Positions 1,697 to 32,890 are shown, numbered from the stretch's first letter. The stretch is DNA of 41,073 nucleotides from Bacteroidia bacterium (GCA_036170695.1 JAVHPR010000259.1:1-41073); one strand, 5' to 3'. Translations and numbers: made by a program. The notes: generated by a model not told the origin, from the letters alone.

Positions 1697-2509
1697 TTAA
1701 CTAAACGACATTAAATTATAATTTAAAATCACATTAAGCCCTTTCAGGATTAAAAATGAATCTGTAAAGATGGGGCTTTTTAATCGTTTCTCAAAAAAAT
1801 AAGCATCACCACCTGTTAAAACTATATTTAAATCGGGATTAAATTGTTTATACCTCTCTATAACTCCCTCTATTTCAGTTATTGTGCCTATTTCTACACC
1901 GGATAAAATACTGTCATTGGTGTTACTACCAATAAGGGTATCGAAATTTTCATCAACAGCTAATAATGGTAATCGGGAAGTAAAAGTATTTAATGCATTG
2001 AAACGCATCTGTAAACCCGGTGAAATGGCCCCTCCTATAAACTCATTATTGTCATTTACAAAATTGTATTTTATACAGGTTCCGGCATCAATCACCAATA
2101 CATTTTTGTTGGGAAATAAAAAATTCCCGCCCACTGCGGCGGCAAGCCTGTCTGAGCCAAGGGTATTAACCGATTGATATAAATTTACCAGCGGTGTAGG
2201 CGTTTCGCTTGTAAAAACAAGTGTTTTTGCTTTCTCTTTCAGGGTATTTATTAACGAACCCATCTCATCAACAACGGAAGTTACTATACACCTGTTGATG
2301 CTGTATTTTTCAAATAAATCAGCTGCCAGCAAGGCTTCTGTCGCCTGCTCGAATGATTGGTGAAATGAATGGCGATATTCTTTAGAAACAGGCTCATTAG
2401 GACGGGTTTCAAAAACAAAAAAATGTACTAATTCATTTTTTTCGATCAAGCCTGCTTTAATTCTTGTATTTCCTATGTCTATTACTAAATTGATTTGCTG
2501 ATCTGCCAT
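1697..2509 (-). CDS. coaX: Type III pantothenate kinase
   Basis: IDIGNTRIK, TLGSDR, VIDAGTC, GGAISPGL and LTGGDA motifs. Confidence 0.95.
   Translation of the reverse strand: MADQQINLVIDIGNTRIKAGLIEKNELVHFFVFETRPNEPVSKEYRHSFHQSFEQATEALLAADLFEKYSINRCIVTSVVDEMGSLINTLKEKAKTLVFTSETPTPLVNLYQSVNTLGSDRLAAAVGGNFLFPNKNVLVIDAGTCIKYNFVNDNNEFIGGAISPGLQMRFNALNTFTSRLPLLAVDENFDTLIGSNTNDSILSGVEIGTITEIEGVIERYKQFNPDLNIVLTGGDAYFFEKRLKSPIFTDSFLILKGLNVILNYNLMSFS
2344..2406 (-). repeat. 63-bp palindrome-bounded element inserted in frame in coaX
   Basis: Minus strand reads CCCGTCCTAATGA-(37 nt)-TCATTCGAGCAGG (imperfect inverted repeat); removing it leaves in-frame FVFETTEALL. Confidence 0.6.
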
Positions 2510-2994: not shown

Positions 2995-3322
2995 CTCCAA
3001 TCAACAAATTGGGTGTACGACAAATTTCCAATAAGGCTTTAATTTCACCCCTTCGGGGTTTTACCATTACGAAATGTTCCATTGTGCTATAATCATTTCA
3101 TCCCTTCGGGATTTACTAAGGATTGGCTACAAAGCCCGAAGGGCTGTTATTATTATAGCTCCAATCAACAAATTGGGTGTACGACAAATTTCCAATAAGG
3201 CTTTAATTTCACCCCTTCGGGGTTTTACCATTACGAAATGTTCCATTGTGCTATAATCATTTCATCCCTTCGGGATTTACTAAGGATTGGCTACAAAGCC
3301 CGAAGGGCTGTTATTATTATAG
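2995..3322. repeat. Perfect tandem duplication, 2 x 164 bp
   Basis: 2995-3158 and 3159-3322 read identically (CTCCAATCAAC...TTATTATTATAG). Confidence 0.9.
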
Positions 3323-3388
3323 AATAAATAATGGTTGGTTTTGTAAAACCCCAAAGGGGTGGTATAAGGGAAATTTGTCGTACACACA
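3174..3388. mobile_element. 215-bp MITE-like element carrying four REP hairpins
   Basis: TIR TGGGTGTACGACAAATTTCC (3174-3193) vs GGAAATTTGTCGTACACACA (3369-3388), 19/20; ACAAAT duplicated at 3168-3173 and 3389-3394; internal CCCCTTCGGGG, TCCCTTCGGGA, GCCCGAAGGGC, CCCCAAAGGGG. Confidence 0.8.
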
Positions 3389-3583
3389 ACAAATCTATAT
3401 ACATATTTATTGCAAAAACCGACAATAATCCCCGAAAACTAATTAACAAAAACACGAGTTATTAACAATTGAGCGTGTGTAAAATACTCCTACCTCCTGT
3501 TCTTTTAAAAAAATAACGCTATATTTTTATCAATTGAAATATAGTAACATAATAAAAGCATCAACCTCCATAATAAAAGAAAC

Positions 3584-4159
3584 ATGAAAAAGAAAAACTT
3601 ACTATTCGTCATCTCCATAGCGATATTCGTTGTTTGGATTTCAGGTTGCAGGAAAGAAATCCCTTACACACATCTACACGACGCTCCATCCGTGCCGAAA
3701 ATTCATATAGGACAAAAATACGGCGGAGGCATTGTTTTTTATGTAGATAGTACAGGTTTTCATGGGTTAACAACTTCTACCATCGACCAAAGCAACTCTT
3801 TGAAGTGGTTCAATGGAAGCTTTATACAAACATCTGCAACAGGGGCTAAAGTTGGTACCGGAATGGAAAACACCAATGCTATCATTAATGCCCAGGGACC
3901 CGGAATATACGCAGCCGGGATATGTGATAATTTGAAAATTAACGACTTTGGCGGTTGGTTTTTACCTTCAAAAGATGAACTGAATTTATTGTATCTTCAA
4001 AAAGTAAATGGTAAAGTTGGTGAATTTCCCTGTTCCTTCTATTGGAGTTCAACGGAAAGTTCCAATAATGGTGCCTGGTCTCAAAGCTTTAGCAATGGGG
4101 CAAACAGCAGTGCAAATAAGGATGGGTCGTACGGTGTACGTGTAATTCGGGCATTTTAG
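3584..4159 (+). CDS. DUF1566 (Lcl C-terminal-like) domain lipoprotein
   Basis: Lipobox ISGC; IGQKYGGGIVFY, GWFLPSKDEL, YWSSTE, AW and VRVIRAF motifs. Confidence 0.8.
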   Translation: MKKKNLLFVISIAIFVVWISGCRKEIPYTHLHDAPSVPKIHIGQKYGGGIVFYVDSTGFHGLTTSTIDQSNSLKWFNGSFIQTSATGAKVGTGMENTNAIINAQGPGIYAAGICDNLKINDFGGWFLPSKDELNLLYLQKVNGKVGEFPCSFYWSSTESSNNGAWSQSFSNGANSSANKDGSYGVRVIRAF

Positions 4160-4229
4160 CCGAATATGAGTTTTTAAAATCAAGCAATTTGAGAATCTGT
4201 AAAGAAAATTTGTTTAGTCGTGTTTAATT

Positions 4230-4454
4230 AATTATAAAAAGATGTCATGTCGAGATTTGACGAGACATCTTTTTTTAATGAAAAAGATTCCTCCACCAGC
4301 TAGTGTCATGTCAATCGTGAAATATCCTAAAGTCATGCTGAACTTGTTTCAGCATCCATAAGATTCCGAAACAAGTTCGGAATGACCAACAATGCGACAA
4401 AACAAACCTGACTTGACACTAGGAATAAAAGACAATACGTCAAAGTAAATTTAA
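4230..4454 (+). repeat. REP-doublet element (GTCATGTCGAG...AGACATCT / AGATTCCTCC...GGAAT) interrupted by a 117-bp MITE
   Basis: Aligns with the reverse complement of 28730-28865, including flanks AATTATAAAAAGA and CGTCAAA..AAATTTAA. Confidence 0.7.
4303..4419. mobile_element. 117-bp MITE-like element, copy 1 (TA-flanked), with REP doublet cargo
   Basis: TIR GTGTCATGTCA / TGACTTGACAC; TA at 4301-4302 and 4420-4421; internal GTCATGCTGAACTTGTTTCAGCATC...GATTCCGAAACAAGTTCGGAATGAC (4332-4386); second copy at 13439. Confidence 0.85.
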
Positions 4455-4473
4455 ATAACTGGAGTTTAAAATC

Positions 4474-4821
4474 ATGTTTAAAACCCGCCACTACGAAAAC
4501 CTGCACATACCACTCTGGTTATTGAAAGACACCTGCTGGATGCTTCAATGGCGTGCGTTCGGGATTACCATGATAGTTCCTACTATTTCGGTAGCATTAA
4601 TAATCACAATAATCAGTTGGCGTGAAAAAGAGGATGAATTCTGGATAAATCTTGCTGTTTTATTATGGATTTCAGGCAACTCTTACTGGATGATCTGCGA
4701 ATTTTTCCACCACGAAGAAATAAAAAATTACGCAGGGTTTCCCTTTTTGGCAGGCATGATTTCTGTTGCTTATTTTTATAAGATCCGTTTGATAAATAAA
4801 AAAGCTAAAGAAGGCATCTAA
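4474..4821 (+). CDS. Small integral membrane protein (about 4 TM), conserved hypothetical
   Basis: Hydrophobic segments with a pseudo-repeated W-x3-(D/N)-x2-WM motif (ENLHIPLWLLKDTCWM / NLAVLLWISGNSYWM). Confidence 0.75.
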   Translation: MFKTRHYENLHIPLWLLKDTCWMLQWRAFGITMIVPTISVALIITIISWREKEDEFWINLAVLLWISGNSYWMICEFFHHEEIKNYAGFPFLAGMISVAYFYKIRLINKKAKEGI

Positions 4822-4938
4822 CCCAAATATTTCCATCCAAAACACTGATTCCCTCAAAAAAATTGATGTAATTTCGCCGTCTGTTATTGAGTAGCAAAAG
4901 AAATGAAGCTACCCGAATTAACCTAATATCTCATTAGA

Positions 4939-6624
4939 ATGAAAAAAATTAAATTCGCTATTTTTTCGTTGATTGCCACATCAAGCATTTTGACTTATGG
5001 ACAAAGCACCGAAATCACGCAGGAGGTAAATACTCCCGTTCAGTCGGCAATAATTTATTTATATGGAGCAGAGGTTTCTCATAGCAAACAGGTAACCTTA
5101 AATCCGGGAAGAAATAAAATAGTTTTTATTGGTTTGTCACCTAAACTAAATTCAAAAAGCATACAAGTAAATGCCACAGGTGACGTAACCATACTCGCAA
5201 TTTCAGATGCGATCAATTATATGGCAAATCAAAAAGAAGGGAGCAGGATAAAACAATTAAAAGACTCTGCTTCCATCCTAAATGATGCTGTAATAGGAAT
5301 TAATAATGATAAAGATGCATTTGCAACAGAGAAAAATATGCTCCTGAAAAATGATGCCATTGGAGGAACGGAAAAAGGGGTTTCAATTGCCGAACTTAAA
5401 TTAGCTTCCGATTTTTACAGAACCAGAATAAAAGAGATTAACAATGAACTATCCGCGTTAAATAAAAATGCTAATAAGTTAAATGAAGCCTTATCAAAAA
5501 TCAATCAGCAACTGATGGAGCTTAATGCAAAAATCAATCAGCCCTCCGCTGAAATATCTATTCTGCTTTCAACTACAGTTAAAACGACAACTACCATTAA
5601 TTTAAAATATGTTGTTACCGACGCAGGGTGGGCACCAAGTTACGACTTACTAGCAGAAGACATCAATCAGCCAATTGAATTAAAATACAGGGCAAAAGTT
5701 TTTAACAATACAGGTATCGATTGGAATGATATTAAGATTAAACTTTCTACTTCAGATCCTTCGCAAAGTGCTGCAAAACCTAAGTTAGAGCCTTGGGAGT
5801 TGGCATTCGTATCTCCCAATATTTATAAAAAACAAAAGAGTTACGCCTACTCCGAAAATTCACCTATTCAGCAATCCAGCGAAGGGTATATGCAAAATAG
5901 TATAAGTAATCTGCCGGGAAGTGGGCAAATTCAGAAACCTGCCATCCAATCTAAAATTGAGTTTATTGAAGTAGAAATTGCTGAACTGAGTGCAGAATTT
6001 GATATTAAAACGAATTACTCGATACCGGCAGATTCAAAGCCATATATTGTAGATGTGACCGAATATAAACTCCCCGCAACTTATCAGCACTTTAGTGCCC
6101 CTAAACTGGTTAGAGATGCTTTTTTATTGGCTCGCATCACTGGTTGGGAAGATTTAGACTTGGTTGAAGGTCCTGCAAATATCTATTATGCCGGAACCTA
6201 TGTTGGTCAATCATACATTGATACCCGCAGCGCAGATGATACGCTGGATCTTTCTTTGGGGCGCGATAATAAAGTATTAGTTACCCGCACTAAAGTGAAA
6301 GAGTTTAGTCTCAGAAAGATCATTGGAAATACCACAAAAGAAACGTTCGCATACGAAATGTTGGTAAAGAACAACCGCAAAACACCTATTCATATTGAAG
6401 TTATTGATCAACTCCCGATATCAACTCAAAGTGATATACTGGTTGATGTTGTTGAAACCTCAAAAGGCGAATTTGATGCTAAAACAGGCGAATATGCATG
6501 GAAAATAGCCTTGCAACCCGGTGAGGTCAAAAAAATAGAGTTTTCTTTTTCTGTAAAGTATCCTAAAAACTCCAAACCAAACTTGCAGAAGACAAGAAGC
6601 CATATGAATGTAAGGTTTATGTAA
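4939..6624 (+). CDS. DUF4140/DUF4139 (MuiA-like) protein
   Basis: Signal peptide; IYLYGAEV N-domain, coiled coil, YVVTDAGWAPSYDL, NNTGIDW, LSLGRD, IEVIDQLPIS motifs. Confidence 0.9.
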   Translation: MKKIKFAIFSLIATSSILTYGQSTEITQEVNTPVQSAIIYLYGAEVSHSKQVTLNPGRNKIVFIGLSPKLNSKSIQVNATGDVTILAISDAINYMANQKEGSRIKQLKDSASILNDAVIGINNDKDAFATEKNMLLKNDAIGGTEKGVSIAELKLASDFYRTRIKEINNELSALNKNANKLNEALSKINQQLMELNAKINQPSAEISILLSTTVKTTTTINLKYVVTDAGWAPSYDLLAEDINQPIELKYRAKVFNNTGIDWNDIKIKLSTSDPSQSAAKPKLEPWELAFVSPNIYKKQKSYAYSENSPIQQSSEGYMQNSISNLPGSGQIQKPAIQSKIEFIEVEIAELSAEFDIKTNYSIPADSKPYIVDVTEYKLPATYQHFSAPKLVRDAFLLARITGWEDLDLVEGPANIYYAGTYVGQSYIDTRSADDTLDLSLGRDNKVLVTRTKVKEFSLRKIIGNTTKETFAYEMLVKNNRKTPIHIEVIDQLPISTQSDILVDVVETSKGEFDAKTGEYAWKIALQPGEVKKIEFSFSVKYPKNSKPNLQKTRSHMNVRFM

Positions 6625-6645
6625 TTTTAATAGTGAATGTAATAA

Positions 6646-6791
6646 CAATAGTTCGGTGTTTTTTTCAAATAGGGACTAAAGTCCCTGAATTCATTGGGTT
6701 TTATTGTAACCCCAGCCTTAAGGCTGGGGTTAATACAATGCCCCATATTAGAGGGCTTCAGCCATGACACTAAAAAAGTACCGAACCATTG
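6646..6791. mobile_element. 146-bp MITE-like element with REP hairpin cargo
   Basis: TIR CAATAGTTCGGTGTTTTTTT vs AAAAAAGTACCGAACCATTG (17/20); TAATAA duplicated at 6640-6645 and 6792-6797; hairpins AGGGACTAAAGTCCCT (6671-6686), perfect 26-bp palindrome (6707-6732), GGGCTTCAGCC (6753-6763). Confidence 0.8.
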
Positions 6792-6804
6792 TAATAAAGT
6801 AATT

Positions 6805-7779
6805 ATGCAAAAAAAAAATTATTACATATTACTTGGAGTAAAAAACACAGCTACTTTTGATGAACTGAAAGTTGCCTACCGCAATTTGGCCAAAAAATAT
6901 CATCCGGATAAAAATCCGGATAATAAAAAGGCGGAAGAGCATTTTAAAGAAATACAACAAGCATATACTGTTTTGTCAAACCCTGAAAAACGTGAAAAAT
7001 ATGATTTAAAAATTTCTTATGGCAGGGGGCATAGCCAACAAAAACAACAGCCCCATTATACCGGTGCCTCACAACAATATTCGCAACAGCAAACGCAGCA
7101 ACAATCGCAGCAACAAAACTACAACGCAAGAAAAGCCAGGGCCTATAAGCATGATAAAACTGAAAACTATCAAATACCCATAAGTATTGGCATTGCGTTG
7201 ATTTTACTTTATTTGATTATTTCATATTCCACCCATAACAAAAAAGAAAGGGTGGTTTCATCTAATGGGGCATCAAGCACCGCCATTGACCAGTACCAGA
7301 GGGGGAATGAGGAAACAAATGCGAAACCGCTGATTAATAATTTTGACTCCCCTTACAGTAACTTTTTTGGTGAAGAAATAGTTAATGAGGATAGCAAAAA
7401 CAACATTGTTATCAAAAACAGTGATGAATCAGAAGCTGTTGTTTGTTTGGTAGAAAACAAAAAAAATGCCAGAACTATTCGTAATCAATACATGACTATG
7501 GGTAATTCTTTTAAAATGAATAATATTCCGGATGGAGACTATTTTTTAAAAGTTTATTTTGGAACTAATTGGGATACCGCAAAAACATTCTTAAACAACC
7601 AGGTGAAAGGTGGATTTTTGAATGAAATGGGCTTTTTTGAATTAAAAATTAACAATAGGTTTTTTAAAATGAAGCAAGAACAAACAAACTCAAGTTCTTC
7701 ATTCTCCTCCTACGAAATAGGATTAAGTCCTAGTCAAAAGGACAACAAAACAATTGCCGCTGAGCAGTTTTTTCAATAA
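6805..7779 (+). CDS. Membrane-anchored DnaJ (J)-domain protein
   Basis: Start MQKKNYY; J domain with [10 protein letters not shown] and [19 protein letters not shown]; Gln-rich linker; one TM helix; C-terminal beta-rich domain. Confidence 0.9.
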
Positions 7780-7781
7780 AA

Positions 7782-7831
7782 AAACCACCCATTTTGCTTC
7801 CAACAAAAACATGGAGCGAAACGGGTGATTT
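7782..7831 (-). terminator. Intrinsic terminator between convergent genes
   Basis: Minus strand AAATCACCCGTTTCGCTCCA-loop-TGGAAGCAAAATGGGTGGTTT followed by a T run. Confidence 0.7.
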
Positions 7832-7851
7832 CAAATACTCAATTCTTTTTT

Positions 7852-8499
7852 CTATTTCTCAAATTTAGCGTATCCTTTTGGTATTTCAAATACGGTAGGC
7901 TCTACTATCTTTTTTGTAATTTTAGTCACTTCCAGGCGTCCCATCTCTTTGCCTCTTAAATCAGTTTGAACTGAAAGCATTGGGAACATATTATTTGTAT
8001 CCGGAATCTGTAAAAAATAAACAGATGCTTTGTCCTTACGATTTAGCTGGCGTAATAACTTTTCAAAGAAAGCAAATTTCCCTTCTGCCAACCAATAGGT
8101 AATTATAGTGCTTTCAGTATTGTTGGTTACAATGTATTCTGAACACTTAAACCCTTGCAGATTTTTTACATTTTGCCCCTTTGTAACTGTACATGAGCCT
8201 TTAATAACAGGATTCGACGGTGTAGGTTGATCCATGTAAAGTTTACGTTCGTGGTTTAAGGACTTCATTGTTTTTGAATCCAAACTCACTAAAAAAGAAC
8301 CTTCAACTTTTTTTGACCTGCTACCTATCTCGTCAATTCTTACCTTGTTATCTTTTACAAAATATACATAACTTGTAGTATCGGTAGCTGTTCCTTTTTG
8401 GAATTCGATAAGACCTTCGAATGATTGTGCTACAGCAGTTAATGAGAACATAGTTATCATCATCGCTCCTGGGACAATTTTTAAAATCGCTTTTTTCAT
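7852..8499 (-). CDS. DUF4412 domain secreted protein
   Basis: Signal peptide AVAQSFEGLIEF; KNLQGFKCSEY, YWL, FPM and FEIPKGY motifs. Confidence 0.8.
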   Translation of the reverse strand: MKKAILKIVPGAMMITMFSLTAVAQSFEGLIEFQKGTATDTTSYVYFVKDNKVRIDEIGSRSKKVEGSFLVSLDSKTMKSLNHERKLYMDQPTPSNPVIKGSCTVTKGQNVKNLQGFKCSEYIVTNNTESTIITYWLAEGKFAFFEKLLRQLNRKDKASVYFLQIPDTNNMFPMLSVQTDLRGKEMGRLEVTKITKKIVEPTVFEIPKGYAKFEK

Positions 8500-8877
8500 T
8501 TGTTCAATTTTTAATATTACGTTTTATATTATACTCTATGCAAAAAACTTTTTCTTAATCCGGCTAAAAATACAAAAAGTTTTTTAGTTATCATCCCTAT
8601 TTCAAAACTTGTGCCAATCTTTTTATTATTTCAAAATTTATTAGGTATCTGCAAATTCTATTAACCCATTAAGTCATAAATAACAGGTCTTAACATCAAT
8701 TTACAACCTATAAAACTAAATTTACTATATAAAACGCCAAAATCAGGCTGTTTTATTAAAAACACCATTTATATACGATACAAATATAAATATTATTTAG
8801 AATTATCCGATTTATATTAAAATTTGTTTCTTTTCTGAATAATCATATCTCAATATACCTATCTATATACCTATCTT

Positions 8878-10311
8878 TTATCTTCTCTTCAAAAAATCAA
8901 ACAATAATCGAACACCCACTCCTGTCGCCCCCTTAATTCGATAGGATTCTTTTGCGGTCAAAAAAGCAGGACCTGCAATATCCAGGTGCATCCATGGGTA
9001 ATCAATATAACGTTCCAGAAATTTACCGGCAGTAATACTTCCTGCATAAGGGCCACCAAGGTTTTTCATATCTGCGATATCCGATTTTATCATCTCATCA
9101 AAATCATCCCAAAAAGGCATTTCGGCTAATCGTTCAAAAACATTATTGCCGCTTTGTTTCAATTCATTTTTTGTTTTTTCATCGGCAGTTCCCATAGCAA
9201 CGATTCCGGAAGTTCCAATAGCCGCAACAGCGGCCCCTGTCAATGTTGCCAAATCAATTACTAATTCCGGCTTGTATTTTTTAACATAGGACAATGCATC
9301 TGCTAATATCATTCGTCCTTCGGCATCTGCATTAAGCATTTCAACCGTTAAGCCATTGTGCATAGTTATTACATCACCCGGAACATAGGCGTTCCCCCCC
9401 GGACGATTATCAGTTGCAGGAACAATTCCAATAACGTGAACAGGCAATTGTGCTTTTGAAATGGCAACCATTGTAGCACCAACAGCGGCAGCACCCGCCA
9501 TATCGCATTTCATTGTATCCATACTGTTTGGAGTAGGCTTTAAACTTATTCCGCCTGTATCATAAACCACTCCTTTTCCAACTAAAACAATCGGTTGTTT
9601 ATTCTTTGCGTTCTTTGGTTTATACTCCATAATAGTGAATGTTGGAGGATCGACACTACCAAGGTTAACAGCCAACAAGCCTCCCATTTTCAAGGCTTTT
9701 ATTTTTGATTTATCAAATACCTCCACACTAAAACCTGCATCTTTTCCAAGTTTTTGAAACTCTTTGGAAAGCTGTGTAGCGGTTAAAAAGTTTACCGGTT
9801 CGTTAACCAATGTACGGGCAATACAAGTTGAAGCAACAACGATGTTCAATTCATCGGCTTCGGATTTACTGATATTTTCACTTACAATAAAAATTTCTTT
9901 AAGAGAAAACGCTTCTTTCTTTTTATCTTTTTTATATTTCAAAAACTGATAATTACTCAAAGCCAAGCCCTCTGTAAATGCCAATGTCTCCTGGGTTTTG
10001 TTTTCAACATCAACAACCGTTATTTTTTCTATTTTATTTTCAGTAATTACAGAATGTACTGTGCTTGCTGCCTTGCGAAGCGATTCCCACGTTAGTGTTA
10101 TTTCCTTTTTAGGATCAATTACCTGAATAAAAACATATCGACTGAGTTGATTGATACTAATAAAAAACTTTTCTTTATCATTGATTTCTTTCTTAATGAA
10201 ATCAATTTCAGTTTTGCTTAAGCCATAATTATCGAATTTGCTATTTTTTTCGCACAACAAAATAATACACTCGGCCTTGCTTATTGCAGATTTTTTGGAG
10301 ATAGTTGTCAT
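8878..10311 (-). CDS. pepA: Leucyl aminopeptidase (M17)
   Basis: LVGKGVVYDTGGISLK, MKCDMAGAA, NADAEGRMILAD, DLATLTGA, WMHLDIAG; likely start MTTISKK. Confidence 0.95.
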   Translation of the reverse strand: MTTISKKSAISKAECIILLCEKNSKFDNYGLSKTEIDFIKKEINDKEKFFISINQLSRYVFIQVIDPKKEITLTWESLRKAASTVHSVITENKIEKITVVDVENKTQETLAFTEGLALSNYQFLKYKKDKKKEAFSLKEIFIVSENISKSEADELNIVVASTCIARTLVNEPVNFLTATQLSKEFQKLGKDAGFSVEVFDKSKIKALKMGGLLAVNLGSVDPPTFTIMEYKPKNAKNKQPIVLVGKGVVYDTGGISLKPTPNSMDTMKCDMAGAAAVGATMVAISKAQLPVHVIGIVPATDNRPGGNAYVPGDVITMHNGLTVEMLNADAEGRMILADALSYVKKYKPELVIDLATLTGAAVAAIGTSGIVAMGTADEKTKNELKQSGNNVFERLAEMPFWDDFDEMIKSDIADMKNLGGPYAGSITAGKFLERYIDYPWMHLDIAGPAFLTAKESYRIKGATGVGVRLLFDFLKRR

Positions 10312-10491
10312 AATTGTTACTTTTACTTTAGAGTTGGTAAAAGTATAAAAAATAATGTATCGATAAAGCAATGTCAACATTTGCTGAAGTATCAGGTTAA
10401 AAATATTTCAACAACCTAATACAACAAAGTCTGGTTAACGTTCTTTTTCGCTAATTAATAAGTTTTCACATTCACGCATAAATTTTCAGCA

Positions 10492-11613
10492 ATGATCAAT
10501 CAATTATTACAACGCGCCTTAAATTTTGAATTTTTATCAATTGATGAAGGTGTTTTTTTATTTAAAAACGCTCCTACTGCCGATTTAATTTTTGTGGCCA
10601 ACGAATTAAGAAAGATTCAAAAGCCTGATGGCAAGGTAACCTGGCAAATCGATCGTAACTTAAATACAACCAATGTATGCATTGCAAATTGCAAGTTTTG
10701 TAATTTTTTTCGTATTCCGGGACATGCGGAAGCTTATATCACCGACATTGAAACATACAAACAAAAAATAGAAGAAACGTTGCGCCTGGGCGGCGATCAG
10801 TTATTATTGCAAGGTGGCCATCATCCCGAATTGGGTTTGAAATTTTATGTTGACCTTTTTAAAGAATTAAAAAGTTTATTTCCGGATTTAAAGTTACATA
10901 CACTTGGGCCACCGGAAGTAGCGCACATAGCCAAGCTTGAAAAAGCCACCCATACCGAAGTGCTGAAAGCTTTGAAAGAAGCTGGAATGGATAGTATGCC
11001 GGGGGCAGGTGCCGAAATTTTAAATGATCGTGTTCGCAGATTAATTTCAAAAGGAAAATGTACAGGGCGCGAATGGCTGGATGTAATGCGTGCAGCACAT
11101 CAATTAAACATTACCACATCTGCTACAATGATGTTCGGACATATCGAAACTATTGAAGAACGATTTGAACACCTGGTTTTAATACGTGAAGTTCAAAATG
11201 AAAAGCCGAAAGATGCAAAGGGATTTTTAGCCTTTATCCCATGGCCTTTTCAGGATGACGGGACGTTATTAAAGCGTCACAAAGGCATTACAAATAATGT
11301 AACAGGTGATGAATATATAAGGATGATTGCAATGAGCAGAATTATGCTGCCCAATATCATCAACATACAAGCAAGTTGGTTGACAGTTGGGAAACAAGTT
11401 GCTCAAATTTGTTTACACGCCGGAGCCAATGATTTTGGAAGTATCATGATTGAAGAAAATGTGGTGTCAGTTGCCGGAGCGCCGCATCGCTTTACAGCCA
11501 ATGGAATACAGCAGGCAATCAGCGAAGCCGGCTTTGTCCCACAATTACGCACGCAACAATATACATATCGTGAACTCCCTGCAAATATTGCTGAACAGGT
11601 GATTAGTTATTAA
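10492..11613 (+). CDS. mqnC: Cyclic dehypoxanthinyl futalosine synthase (radical SAM, CofH/MqnC family)
   Basis: IDRNLNTTNVCIANCKFCNF (CxxxCxxC), LLQGGHHP, PGAGAEIL, ATMMFGH, NIQASW, GANDFGSIMIEENVV. Confidence 0.9.
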   Translation: MINQLLQRALNFEFLSIDEGVFLFKNAPTADLIFVANELRKIQKPDGKVTWQIDRNLNTTNVCIANCKFCNFFRIPGHAEAYITDIETYKQKIEETLRLGGDQLLLQGGHHPELGLKFYVDLFKELKSLFPDLKLHTLGPPEVAHIAKLEKATHTEVLKALKEAGMDSMPGAGAEILNDRVRRLISKGKCTGREWLDVMRAAHQLNITTSATMMFGHIETIEERFEHLVLIREVQNEKPKDAKGFLAFIPWPFQDDGTLLKRHKGITNNVTGDEYIRMIAMSRIMLPNIINIQASWLTVGKQVAQICLHAGANDFGSIMIEENVVSVAGAPHRFTANGIQQAISEAGFVPQLRTQQYTYRELPANIAEQVISY

Positions 11614-11618
11614 GCGTA

Positions 11619-13346
11619 TTATTTGCAAATGACAACTCGTTTAGAAACAATCTCGTTTTCAACAAAAATCTGAATGATATAAATCCCGTTTTTCGATAAA
11701 TCTAAATTTAGAGAGGTTTGTCCTTTTGTTGGTGATTTATAAATAATCTGACCTAAGGGATTGATTACTTTTATTTCTTCACTTGCTTTTGGTAACAATA
11801 CAGTGAAATCACCTTTCGTTGGGTTTGGATAGATGTAAACATATTCATCGTTTTTGCTTATCGAATTTATGGTTGTAGCTCCGGTTACACCACACGCAAA
11901 ACTTGTTTGTCCTGATACTAAAAAATCAGAAAGACAATTGATATAGCATTCCAGATTTGTATATCCGGCAATTCCTGTAATTGAAGTTGAAAGATTAGTA
12001 CCGTTATGATCCTGAACCACATTATTTAATCCGTGGGCTGTTTCCCAATAATCAGGCATCCCGTCATTATCTGAATCTGTCAATGGTAACGGAGGATTTG
12101 ATGGATTAAAATCGAGAATAAATGCATCGTGGTAATGATCAGCTGAATCAACAGGTACAAGGGCCGGGGTATTGGTTGGTAAAAAACTGAACAGGCGTCT
12201 ATCCATGCTGTCGCGAGGGAATGCTCCAACATTGGCATAAACATAATTGGTTAATTGGATTGTAGGGGTATAAGTAATTAATGGAAAGGGATGCCTGACA
12301 GACTCTTGCGTTAATACCCCAAAGTCTGTATTTGGATTGTTTCCCGGGCTTGAAAAATCGTTACAGCAATAAAAAAGATCATAATCTGAATAAGTCGAAT
12401 ATAAATTCATTTTATTACCACTTGCATAAAAATGATTATCAGGGAAATTCATAAAATCATGTGATATCATTCCCCCGGTATATCCGGGACGGCTAACACT
12501 AAAATTATTTACCCAATTCATATTCAGAAAAAAAGAATCAATTGCTGTTGGAGCTGTCTGATCAATGTTTGAATTATACCAAATATTGATAGCCTGATCC
12601 CAAATCAGGTTATTAGATAATTCAATATTTAATGGGTGGACACCGCAATAGGCCGATTCACAGCTAAATTCAGGCATCCTTCCACCTATCCTATTCCAGA
12701 TATTATGGTGAATACTTATACTATCTTGCGGATGCTCAAAGCTGGAATAATTCATTAATAAACCTCCCAAATAATAATGATCTCCCAAGGTTTCTGCCAA
12801 TGAACAATTTTGAAGTGTGATATGGCTTGAATTTGACATCTGAACACATTCATCAACAGCATTTGCGAAAGAACAGTGGTCAACTATGGTATTAGAAGCA
12901 CCATCAAACCGGAAACCATCATCAAGTACATAACCTTGTCCTGCAATAGTTAAATCAGGGTTAGGACGTGAGCGAATGTGACGAATTATCATATTATCAC
13001 CCGTTCCAACGGTGTCATACATTTCATCAATCACAAAACCCCTAACAATAATACCTCCCGGAGAGGTTTGTCCTGCCAAAGTGAAATCGCCATAGATTAC
13101 TTCAGCTGCGGCATTAATTATTCCGCTGACTTTAAAAAGAATATATCTTTTTCCGGGAGTTGCTAAAGCTTCCGCCAGTGAACCCGGACCACTTGGATCA
13201 AGTGTGGTAACATAAATTACCTGACCGCCACGCCCACCAATTGTCTTTCCTCCAAATCCTTCTGCACCCGGAAATGAAGGAATGGTTTGAGTTTTACCGA
13301 TAAAAAAACAAATAACTCCGGACAATAACAATATTGCTTTCTTCAT
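11619..13346 (-). CDS. Pectate-lyase-like (PL1-like beta-helix) protein with T9SS type A CTD
   Basis: FPGAEGFG...GGRGGQVIYVT, LAGQTSPGG, IVDHCSF, DSDNDGMPDYWE, GYTNLECYIN; CTD IYPNPT...GIYII...KRVVI. Confidence 0.8.
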   Translation of the reverse strand: MKKAILLLSGVICFFIGKTQTIPSFPGAEGFGGKTIGGRGGQVIYVTTLDPSGPGSLAEALATPGKRYILFKVSGIINAAAEVIYGDFTLAGQTSPGGIIVRGFVIDEMYDTVGTGDNMIIRHIRSRPNPDLTIAGQGYVLDDGFRFDGASNTIVDHCSFANAVDECVQMSNSSHITLQNCSLAETLGDHYYLGGLLMNYSSFEHPQDSISIHHNIWNRIGGRMPEFSCESAYCGVHPLNIELSNNLIWDQAINIWYNSNIDQTAPTAIDSFFLNMNWVNNFSVSRPGYTGGMISHDFMNFPDNHFYASGNKMNLYSTYSDYDLFYCCNDFSSPGNNPNTDFGVLTQESVRHPFPLITYTPTIQLTNYVYANVGAFPRDSMDRRLFSFLPTNTPALVPVDSADHYHDAFILDFNPSNPPLPLTDSDNDGMPDYWETAHGLNNVVQDHNGTNLSTSITGIAGYTNLECYINCLSDFLVSGQTSFACGVTGATTINSISKNDEYVYIYPNPTKGDFTVLLPKASEEIKVINPLGQIIYKSPTKGQTSLNLDLSKNGIYIIQIFVENEIVSKRVVICK

Positions 13347-13438
13347 AAAATCTATTATTTAAACATTAACATGGTCAGTAAGCGAAAATTGAAAATTTCA
13401 TTTGCCTTTACCTGATTAATTTTTGTAAAATATTACTA

Positions 13439-13555
13439 TTGTCATGTCAATCGTGAAATATCCTAAAGTCATGCTGAACTTGTTTCAGCATCCATAAGAT
13501 TCCGAAACAAGTTCGGAATGACCAACAATGCGACAAAACAAACTTGACTTGACAC
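13439..13555. mobile_element. 117-bp MITE-like element, copy 2 (TA-flanked)
   Basis: 115/117 identical to 4303-4419; TA at 13437-13438 and 13556-13557; unrelated flanks. Confidence 0.85.
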
Positions 13556-13651
13556 TATTATTATTCACAATTTAAAAACAGTTTTCATTCATACAAATAA
13601 ACCACACCGCGAATGTTGATAGAATGCCACTTAACGACCTGAAAATATTTA

Positions 13652-20261: not shown

Positions 20262-20349
20262 TTGTGTGCGTAGGTCATGCTGAGCCTGCCGAAGTATGTG
20301 GGCAAGCCATCACACACCCTTCGACAGGCTCAGGATGACGACACGCAAT
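20262..20349. repeat. REP-like inverted doublet
   Basis: GTCATGCTGAGCCTGCCGAAG (from 20274) pairs with CTTCGACAGGCTCAGGATGAC (to 20339); outer arms TTGTGTGCGT / ACGACACGCAA. Confidence 0.8.
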
Positions 20350-28699: not shown

Positions 28700-28729
28700 T
28701 TGTTCCTAACTTATATTTGTAGTATTAGG

Positions 28730-28865
28730 TTAAATTTGTTTTGACGGATAAAAGTCATTCCGACCACGTTCACTTCGTTCAGTGTAAACTCCGTGGAGGA
28801 ATCTTTTTCAAGACTAAAAAGATGTCTCGTCAAACCTCGACATGACATTGCGTCTTTTTATAATT
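28730..28865 (-). repeat. REP-doublet element homologous to 4230-4454, with a 25-bp mini-hairpin insert
   Basis: GTCATTCCGACC...GGAGGAATCT...AGATGTCTCGTCAAACCTCGACATGAC (28754-28846); insert flanked by CGT at 28767-28769 and 28792-28794. Confidence 0.75.
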
Positions 28866-32817: not shown

Positions 32818-32890
32818 CAACGAATAACGAATTTTCTCGAATAGCGAATAAAAACTAGATTCGTTATTCGGTAAAATTCGTTATTCGTTG
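32818..32890. repeat. 73-bp imperfect palindrome built from CGAATAACGAAT / ATTCGTTATTCG units
   Basis: CAACGAATAACGAATTTT pairs with AAAATTCGTTATTCGTTG; inner CGAATAGCGAAT pairs with ATTCGTTATTCG. Confidence 0.8.

Follow-up and report, generated by a model that had tools for sequence, protein, structure and literature searches.

Bacterial MITEs are described, in the relevant parts of PMC3184786 and PMC3733652, as deriving from IS elements, with Correia/NEMIS, RUP, ERIC and Nezha among the examples. The REP/REPIN-RAYT systems, together with REPtrons and TIRtrons, are treated in parts of bioRxiv 10.1101/2021.07.10.451892, PMC3733652, PMC6006769, PMC3116915 and PMC3337134, and the portion of the bioRxiv study that sets REPINs beside MITEs holds the two to be distinct both in their enzymes and, very markedly, in tempo. 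In the Bacteroidota genome considered here, REPIN-like units and MITEs are physically joined, repeatedly and in many combinations. The account that we favour, and regard as reasonably probable, is that shells moved by DDE transposases ferry nuclease-associated hairpin doublets as passive cargo, which would give hairpin repeats a concrete means of spreading with no action by an enzyme of their own. A literature search found no paper reporting nuclease-associated hairpin doublets inside MITE shells, and a search with the hairpin motif strings returned unrelated primer matches only.

The source is a 3.5-Mb Bacteroidota MAG (G000) of 35% GC, and the window, that is, the whole stretch of 41,073 nucleotides that was analysed, is its contig C259. 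The MAG is fragmented (436 contigs) and 73% complete, and the copy counts given for it are therefore lower bounds. An earlier, sequence-only reading of the window had picked out three types of short element in four copies, with ends unrelated to one another, and had proposed that each is a DDE-type MITE shell with a REP-type hairpin cargo of its own. The elements lie where that reading placed them and their TIRs are indeed unrelated, their boundaries having been redrawn from the genome-wide copies in G000; no strand is assigned to any of them. Folding was computed as single-stranded DNA, with z-scores taken against 200 shuffles. Additional MITEs, which the earlier reading had missed, are present elsewhere in the window.

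Family A occupies 3175-3387, with TIRs of 19 bp (3175-3193 and 3369-3387), perfect in most copies, that enclose two inverted copies of a two-hairpin unit (U at about 3204-3278 and U' at about 3295-3365). Its target duplication, previously given as 6-bp ACAAAT, is instead the 8-bp CAACAAAT, found at 3166-3173 on the left and 3387-3394 on the right, where the element end is ambiguous by one base. Seven full copies at 83-100% identity occur in G000, the 8-bp flanks matching exactly in four of them and with at most one mismatch in five, and the element folds into one long hairpin (z = -9.5). A 164-bp tandem duplicate at 3004-3167, also overlooked earlier, is a copy of 3168-3331 (15 bp of flanking sequence and A's first 149 bp; 100% self-match); because contigs of the public runs (X1-X4, available as contigs only, which break at every repeat) break at this duplicate, it may be an assembly artefact.

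Family B is represented by two window copies, 99.1% identical, at 4304-4418 and 13440-13554, with 11-bp TIRs carrying one mismatch and a hairpin-doublet cargo (4331-4356 and 4361-4388 in copy 1) whose halves pair with each other; the two copies fold with z = -3.3 and -4.9. The duplication once read as TA proves to be a 4-bp NTAN, namely CTAG for copy 1 (4300-4303 and 4419-4422) and CTAT for copy 2 (13436-13439 and 13555-13558). Of the 26 full copies in G000 (95.7-100% identity, beside numerous fragments where contigs end), 20 have an exact duplication and 25 one within a single mismatch, against a permuted-flank mean of 4.1. Copy 1 is nested, which had likewise gone unnoticed, in a degenerate copy of family D at about 4221-4462, the interior of D being a doublet of GTCA-tagged hairpins and its 4-bp NTAN duplication being exact in 14 of 21 copies. 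The host D minus B copy 1 and one CTAG is colinear with five other D copies, and constitutes a paralogous empty site. A joint across B in the public runs (4296 to 4433) was considered as a further empty site and set aside: its sides measure 20 nt and the letters between them are those of the D consensus, which marks it as in all likelihood a further D copy. The 4-bp NTAN duplication of B and D may be a link to IS5-like elements.

Family C lies at 6646-6791, between the two copies of TAATAA (6640-6645 and 6792-6797) that the earlier reading had correctly identified, and has TIRs of about 12 bp around three hairpins (about 6672-6685, 6710-6729 and 6753-6763; z = -6.8). About ten full copies were found in G000, with three copies at 99-100% identity and about eight at 74-79%, and the TSD is 5 or 6 bp in eight of ten. 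In nine relatives both genes flanking C are kept with no element between them; empty sites, which the earlier reading had proposed to look for, were found for C as for B copy 1, although at about 75% identity the C sites are too diverged for a single TSD copy to be read. Such elements adjoin gene starts, as C does in ending 13 nt upstream of a dnaJ-like start codon at 6805.

TIRs recur genome-wide as paired ends with TSDs, for all three families permuted flanks match far less often than real TSDs, and these features, together with the fixed length of the duplications, the IS partner of A described below and the orthologous and paralogous empty sites, uphold the assignment of the shells to DDE-type MITEs. 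A, B and C would be non-autonomous cut-and-paste elements with short TIRs acted on by DDE transposases that are encoded elsewhere, and their copies are probably still being moved by these enzymes today. Mobility would come from the shell, as the target duplications, recent bursts and presence or absence among genomes suggest, and the doublet would turn the entire MITE into one long hairpin.

A full-length IS with matching TIRs, for which the earlier reading had proposed to look, was obtained for A, and none carrying B or C TIRs was found in G000. The A TIR occurs 63 times in G000, enclosing at least six different interiors, and also in two IS-type ends located at seven and four contig ends. 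An exact-pattern scan of the genome-contig collection for the IS end gave no match; a metagenome scan returned one contig, L029, which holds a 1319-bp IS bounded by both of the IS-type ends found in G000 and sharing identical TIRs with family A. Its 327-aa ORF resembles the ISKra4 family (NCBIfam NF033572, E = 2e-50, profile positions 112-422) and scores 172 bits against a curated cut-off of 205, because the N-terminal part (profile positions 1-111, absent from this ORF) sits in a separate 67-aa ORF; the flanks of this IS, the only full copy found, carry no target duplication, and a Pfam search of the ORF gave no match. The closest relatives of the IS in the genome-contig collection are 45-56% identical. 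The IS body is absent from the G000 MAG, where its ends are present, and 15 sites with unpaired A-TIRs in relatives yielded no full IS, nothing but additional MITE types and an IS remnant with an internal deletion (L027). Judged from its ends and this profile match, the transposase partner of A is probably an ISKra4-like IS in the same organism.

The earlier assignment of a separate cargo to each shell is too tidy, since shells and cargoes combine freely. The B doublet is also found inside family E (10 copies, with a different TIR and a 3-bp TSD), a doublet termed M2 is found inside A-TIR shells (15 copies) as well as F shells, and the triple hairpin of C is found inside other TIR shells in four relatives (G007, G062, G063 and G024). 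The full B shell is confined to G000 apart from one 83% match in G023, and the B hairpins occur in 18 of the 40 other genomes, with five other families of the class represented. One shell is a chimera of B-left and D-left ends, joined at the shared hairpin, with a CTAG duplication of its own. The interiors of A, B and C, within which inverted self-matches are 68-76%, are inverted palindromic-unit doublets and, on the favoured account, not IS remnants. Cargo would have been captured repeatedly, probably via recombination or template switching at hairpins, and palindromic cargo may be favoured because it brings both element ends together.

A different relation between shell and cargo would hold if the doublets were mobile through their own Y1 or GIY-YIG nucleases, preferred the apex of a TIR-TIR hairpin, and so filled the centres of MITEs. 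That the cargo is always central and oriented to make the whole element palindromic would follow naturally from such a preference, as would the many cargo types within the same shell, the existence of M-type doublets with no obvious shell (window 20267-20345; C175:16924) and an M2-bearing element that disrupts an orthologue of the Y1 gene Y1a in G060. We nevertheless think it unlikely. No empty shell was found, B ends lacking the core being seen only at contig ends, and the cargo is fixed within each family while the B copies are nearly identical throughout, which argues that cargo and shell multiplied together. Moreover, away from nuclease genes every dispersed A-type or C-type unit in G000 and G060 lies within a TIR/TSD shell, as expected if the units hitchhike in MITEs, which the earlier reading had put forward; a second, independent nuclease-driven tier of mobility, which it had also envisaged, would go beyond these observations.

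The link between DDE-borne cargo and nucleases rests in the first instance on Y1 genes. C units flank an IS200-like Y1 gene, Y1c, that is conserved in eight genomes; its upstream flank matches seven C copies at 75-78% identity over 63 nt, and the eight orthologous loci all retain the hairpin pair, which shows compensatory changes and keeps constant distances from the start and stop codons. The three hairpins of C are read as h2'-h1-h2 of the Y1c-flanking units, a permutation of the gene-flank order h1-h2-gene-h2'-h1'. Unit U of A resembles the flank upstream of a Y1 gene in G060, at 76% identity over 71-75 nt, and in that genome the 12 matches of the A unit at E <= 1e-3 comprise eight in A-TIR shells and four adjoining two Y1 genes, with none elsewhere. 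A units bracket a single Y1 clade, different from that of Y1c, in the relatives G060 and G053, and a cognate Y1 for the A cargo is absent from the 73% complete G000 assembly. All four complete Y1 genes have inverted-flank scores of 30-35, against a maximum of 25 among 594 control ORFs.

These matches bear on the possibility that A, B and C are ordinary MITEs with a palindromic or terminator-like filling, whose likeness to nuclease flanks reflects convergence of short GC-rich stems. Short stems of the form CCCC-loop-GGGG are of low complexity, the A stems are each followed by an inward-pointing T-run in the manner of intrinsic terminators, and a permissive Rfam scan of the whole window gave only sub-threshold, chance-level matches on the elements and no family. 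The homology, however, covers both hairpins together with their spacers (63-75 nt in all), the matches of the A unit in G060 that are not in MITEs adjoin Y1 genes in four of four cases, and the GIY-YIG counts given below point the same way; convergence appears highly improbable.

All four complete Y1 proteins carry Y---Q--HH, the motif of subclass 1.2 in section 18 and Table 1 of PMC6006769, and the two that were compared with profiles score 59-79 bits against the IS200 model (cut-off 55) and 20-29 bits against NCBIfam REP_Tyr_transpos (cut-off 80). By motif and profile these genes are IS200-like subclass 1.2 and not canonical RAYTs, and Table 1 of PMC6006769 enters that subclass with 'no' for REP; the present loci suggest that subclass-1.2 genes do have cognate flanking units. 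The earlier association of the cargo with REP-type nucleases survives in that separable inverted doublets stand beside nuclease genes, and fails in that the Y1 proteins belong to this subclass and fall below the REP_Tyr_transpos cut-off. GTAG stands a few bases off the stem in some units (the Y1b flanks; L074, L075 and L077). In G000 and G007 the hairpin variant beside Y1c coincides with that of the dispersed cargo, and in G063 it differs. C elements and Y1c orthologues correspond loosely: G060 and G065 are rich in full C copies yet lack a Y1c orthologue. Of the 8 genomes that possess such an orthologue 5 have C elements, against 11 of the 52 that do not, a comparison dropped as support since the genomes are related and not independent.

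The B cargo leads to a different nuclease. Its hairpins have no match in any of 35 Y1 loci, and a partial Y1 resembling class 2, located where contig C350 ends, was rejected as their partner, a relative being present in one of 60 genus genomes and the upstream hairpins absent. The first B hairpin is instead identical, over 25 of 25 nt, to a unit just upstream of a GIY-YIG gene, g2. Thus the proposed search for hairpin-flanked RAYT or GIY-YIG genes led to Y1 for the A and C cargo and to GIY-YIG for that of B. Pfam GIY-YIG (PF01541) was matched nine times in G000, each time above the cut-off; seven of the matches are single-domain ORFs 97-142 aa long. Five of these seven small genes have inverted-flank scores of 21-36, beyond the 99th percentile (18) of the 594 control ORFs. 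GTCA-tagged units bracket g2 in 12 of 12 orthologues inspected, the unit type shifting with the protein clade, and the units on either side of g1 and g3 are of M2 type, with the 3' copy overlapping the stop codon. Given 332 M1/M2 sites, chance alone would place about 0.17 of them in the 1.8 kb around the seven genes, and at least three of the genes have them. The small stand-alone proteins presumably resemble the YhbQ/Slx1-like group.

The direction of derivation might be the reverse, the nuclease-gene flanks being decayed MITE interiors left by insertions in repeat-rich spots, in which case the cargo would not derive from nuclease loci. Arrays of units at the L079 and G007 loci do have the look of repeat hot spots, and the C hairpins follow a permuted version of the Y1c-flank order. 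Against this, fixed start-codon distances and stop-codon overlap recur in the eight Y1c loci, g1, g3 and three g2 orthologues that lie in different genomic contexts, and the nuclease-flanking units are not bounded by MITE TIRs, all of which makes this derivation very doubtful. Under the favoured account of DDE-moved shells with passive cargo, the units would have their 'home' in inverted pairs around small single-domain nuclease genes, namely subclass-1.2 IS200-like Y1 (HUH) genes for the cargo of A and C, and small stand-alone GIY-YIG genes for that of B and likewise of families D, E, A2 and F.

A broader reading, which we advance tentatively and hold to be somewhat short of probable, is that Bacteroidota harbour two parallel nuclease-plus-hairpin replicators (Y1 of subclass 1.2, and an HUH-independent GIY-YIG with GTCA hairpins), both spread mainly between the ends of unrelated DDE transposons. 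If true, it would supply a GIY-YIG counterpart of RAYT/REP and a true two-tier arrangement, with slow replicators on borrowed fast vehicles. The small GIY-YIG genes point to a second class of hairpin-associated nuclease; a literature search found no paper on such genes bracketed by dispersed GTCA-tagged hairpins. The modular repeats also fragment assemblies, and many G000 contigs end inside them.

Set against the described systems, A, B and C resemble bacterial MITEs in being non-coding, intergenic elements of 115-213 bp, present in many copies, with long hairpin folds, TIRs and fixed-length TSDs and, for A, a cognate IS with identical ends; they differ in that their interior is a nuclease-bracketing module swapped among shells with unrelated TIRs. 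Like REP/REPIN-RAYT systems they contain inverted palindromic doublets that fold as one hairpin, with a low-copy Y1 bracketed by inverted units in the case of the A and C cargo, and GTAG near the stem in some units. The Y1 here is of the IS200-like subclass, however, the dispersed copies carry the TIRs and TSDs that REPINs lack, and Y1-type units number in the tens, not hundreds. The small GIY-YIG genes, finally, are like the stand-alone nucleases of PF01541 in size and in their single domain, and differ in that each gene here is bracketed by inverted GTCA-tagged units that occur in hundreds of dispersed copies.

The four non-coding element copies picked out by a reading from sequence alone lie where it placed them, and whole-genome BLAST makes each a member of a dispersed family, their boundaries being corrected once copies were aligned with flanks. 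Family A (3175-3387) has terminal inverted repeats (TIRs) of 19 bp and an 8-bp target duplication, exact in four of seven full copies and with at most one mismatch in five. Family B, present as B1 (4304-4418) and a second copy (13440-13554), has ends of 11 bp that mismatch at one position; its target duplication is a 4-bp NTAN, mostly CTAN, and the TA originally proposed is only the core of it. That duplication is perfect in 20 of the 26 full copies and has at most one mismatch in 25 (permuted mean 4.1). The ends of family C (6646-6791) measure about 12 bp, and 8 of 10 copies show an AT-rich duplication of 5 or 6 bp. As single strands all three fold into one long hairpin (z against shuffles of -9.5 for A, -3.3 and -4.9 for the B copies and -6.8 for C), the two internal hairpins of B being mutually paired.

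The metagenome-assembled genome to which the window belongs as contig C259 (G000) comprises 3.53 Mb in 436 contigs (35% GC, completeness 73%, contamination 2%). Genes around the elements in the window are ordinary housekeeping genes, every element discussed is intergenic, and a type-IX secretion sorting tail on one neighbour places the organism in Bacteroidota. The window also holds an exact 164-bp tandem copy of 3168-3331 (15 bp of flank and 149 bp from the beginning of A) at 3004-3167, which may be a real duplication or an assembly artefact, and a further copy of family D, another MITE family, on the minus strand at 28725-28865 (pieces at 92% and 81% identity). A family F MITE at 1582-1737 (84% identity over 158 bp to a seed copy) encloses a doublet of M2 hairpins, a sister type to those of B, and overlaps about 40 nt of the 3' end of a pantothenate kinase ORF (1697-2509, minus strand); an M2-type doublet at 20267-20345 lies in no recognised TIR shell and may be a naked doublet. 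The palindromic run of short repeated words at 32819-32889 is unrelated to the families studied; its weak Rfam matches to MIR814, one on each strand or more, fall far short of the threshold.

Copies of B share 95.7-100% identity, and many contigs of the assembly break off in them, which points to a recent burst. B1 is nested within a degenerate D copy (about 4221-4462) of a family with 21 full copies, ends resembling those of B and the same NTAN duplication (exact in 14 of 21). With B1 and one CTAG removed, the host copy aligns without gaps to five other D copies, which makes this an empty site of the paralogous kind. In nine related genomes the two genes that flank C lie 38-50 bp apart with no element between them; at about 75% identity a single copy of the C target duplication is illegible there. 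Given the length of the relatives' spacer, C stands in for most of the native sequence upstream of a DnaJ-domain gene; it ends 13 nt upstream of the start codon (6805; stretch 6792-6807).

The shell of A, that is its TIRs and target duplication, has a probable driver. Its TIR occurs 63 times in the genome, paired at MITE distance in nine cases only, and after the first 22-24 bases its copies have at least six interiors unrelated to each other. Two more end types, seen at contig ends only (7 and 4 times), were located by exact-match scan on a metagenome contig, where they bound an element of 1319 bp (L029:212-1530). Its 327-aa ORF matches the NCBIfam ISKra4 transposase model (E = 2e-50), scoring 172 bits against a cut-off of 205 because the N-terminal part is a separate 67-aa ORF; a Pfam search of the ORF gave no match, and no target duplication was seen at this copy. 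An ISKra4-like IS would mobilize A; the genome itself yielded no IS with the ends of B or C. Within the genus, 10 of 61 genomes have the A TIR, and G060, a relative, has 71 matches to it. At another locus (L027, G023:C81:1250-4056) it is fused directly to an internal piece of the ISKra4-like transposase gene, an internally deleted IS and a possible intermediate towards a MITE.

The cargo of A is a unit, U, of two hairpins and a spacer (about 75 nt), followed by the same unit inverted. In both orientations U matches the 200-bp upstream flank of a Y1 (IS200-like) gene of G060 (76% over 71-75 nt), and two more Y1 genes of that clade, in G060 and the relative G053, have arrays of related units downstream. 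A-TIR shells account for eight of the 12 matches to U in G060 (E <= 1e-3), four of these being truncated at contig ends; the other four adjoin the two Y1 genes there, and none lies elsewhere. One of two matches in G053 adjoins the Y1 gene, and all 14 in the genome under study lie inside A copies. By this distribution the association of U with Y1 genes is not an effect of density. The assembly contains no orthologue of the U-flanked Y1 clade, the best match having 50-54% identity. Another A-TIR MITE of G060 (L014, L020) carries units like the flanks of Y1b-like genes there (L074, L075), each a hairpin followed a few bases on by GGTAG.

Four complete Y1 genes (143-159 aa) and one partial gene are present in the genome itself. 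All four complete proteins bear Y---Q--HH, the signature of Y1 subclass 1.2 according to Quentin et al., and the two tested against NCBIfam passed the IS200 model and failed that for REP-associated tyrosine transposases. Inverted hairpin-bearing flanks bracket each of the four, with best alignment scores of 30-35 against a mean of 11.3, a 99th percentile of 18 and a maximum of 25 for 594 control ORFs. The partial gene (G000:C350:1624-1887) is class-2-like, with an HUH motif of NHVH type, and is truncated by a contig end; having a relative in only one of 60 genus genomes, it may be foreign or contamination. In G060 a Y1a orthologue (92% over 122 aa; L080, G060:C280:58222-59494) is broken by an M2-bearing MITE near its conserved C-terminal motif.

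It is to the flanks of one of these genes, Y1c, that the cargo of C is related. The hairpin pair directly upstream of Y1c resembles the interior of seven C copies (75-78% over 63 nt), and has no other match in the genome besides C copies and its own downstream mirror. The order h1-h2-gene-h2'-h1' is kept in eight orthologous loci (of 12 returned, one with a broken gene and three paralogues at or below 58% identity being omitted), with compensatory changes in the stems, h2 about 15 nt upstream of the start codon and h2' overlapping the stop codon. The C interior reads h2'-h1-h2, and is an inverted doublet of the Y1c-flank unit with the palindromic h1 in common. How tightly nuclease and cargo are linked is another matter: the hairpin variant beside Y1c is the dispersed one in the genome under study and in G007, and is not in G063, and C elements are plentiful in G060 and G065, both lacking a Y1c orthologue. 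These observations weaken a tight link, and passive hitchhiking of the hairpins fits them better than does nuclease-dependent spread.

The hairpins of B, each a GTCA tag, a short variable stem and a conserved top of 11-13 nt, match none of 35 Y1 loci of the genome and its relatives. Hairpins of B and M2 types occupy 332 sites in the genome, 241 of them in doublets or clusters, and the GIY-YIG genes with such flanks that the sequence-only reading had suggested looking for do exist. Nine GIY-YIG matches exceed the Pfam cut-off, seven being ORFs of 97-142 aa (g1-g7). Upstream of g2 lies a unit identical to the first hairpin of B (25/25 nt) and downstream an inverted variant; M2-type units flank g1 and g3 on both sides, the 3' copy encoding the last codons and stop; D-like units flank g4 on both sides; g6 and g7 have further GTCA-tagged types, and g5 an upstream array only. 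Chance, calculated from the 332 sites, would supply about 0.17 units in the 1.8 kb flanking the small genes, and the inverted flanks of five of the seven exceed the 99th percentile of controls. Inspection of g2 covered 13 of 30 loci returned, namely the genome's own and 12 orthologues from other genomes (>=60% identity), leaving out an unpublished G055 locus and more distant paralogues; inverted GTCA-tagged units bracket all 12 orthologues. Unit type tracks protein clade: orthologues at 67-84% identity have a TGAAYTTRTTTCA-type top and those at 60-64% a long CCCGTG stem. Several B-hairpin matches in relatives (G008:C87, G016:C78) directly adjoin g2 orthologues.

Shells and cargoes combine freely. 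The B doublet also occurs in family E, whose 10 copies have an unrelated TIR of 18 bp and, in six of them, a 3-bp TNA duplication, and the M2 doublet both in A-TIR shells (family A2; 15 copies, 78-100% identity, 8-bp duplications) and inside family F. The triple hairpin of C has a different TIR and a 9-bp duplication in G007, a TIR similar to that one in G062 and G063, and in G024 a further one. The full B shell was found in the genome under study alone, G023 having an 83% match to its positions 1-104. Of 40 other genomes, 18 have hairpins of B, and among these are members of five other families of the class. No empty B shell was found in the genome, core-less B ends occurring only where a contig stops. 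One visible route of exchange is a chimera (C214:7436-7588) that joins the left halves of B and D at a 7-nt stretch common to both hairpins and has its own CTAG duplication.

The reading best supported by these comparisons is a composite, in which DDE-type shells would supply movement and a doublet of nuclease-associated palindromic units would be carried along as passenger. The original proposal, that hairpin doublets disperse inside DDE-mobilised MITEs or land preferentially within them, is partly supported and much extended. Literature searches returned no description of such hairpin doublets in TIR/TSD shells, granted that supplements may list Bacteroidetes repeats, and no report of dispersed hairpins that flank GIY-YIG genes on both sides. 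Bertels and colleagues (bioRxiv 10.1101/2021.07.10.451892) stress that REPINs and MITEs are distinct. The result is one of known kinds of element in a new combination. For the Y1 loci the nearest precedent is the TIRtrons described by Di Nocera et al. (PMC3733652), Y1 genes with long inverted repeat flanks, alongside moderately abundant repeat families.
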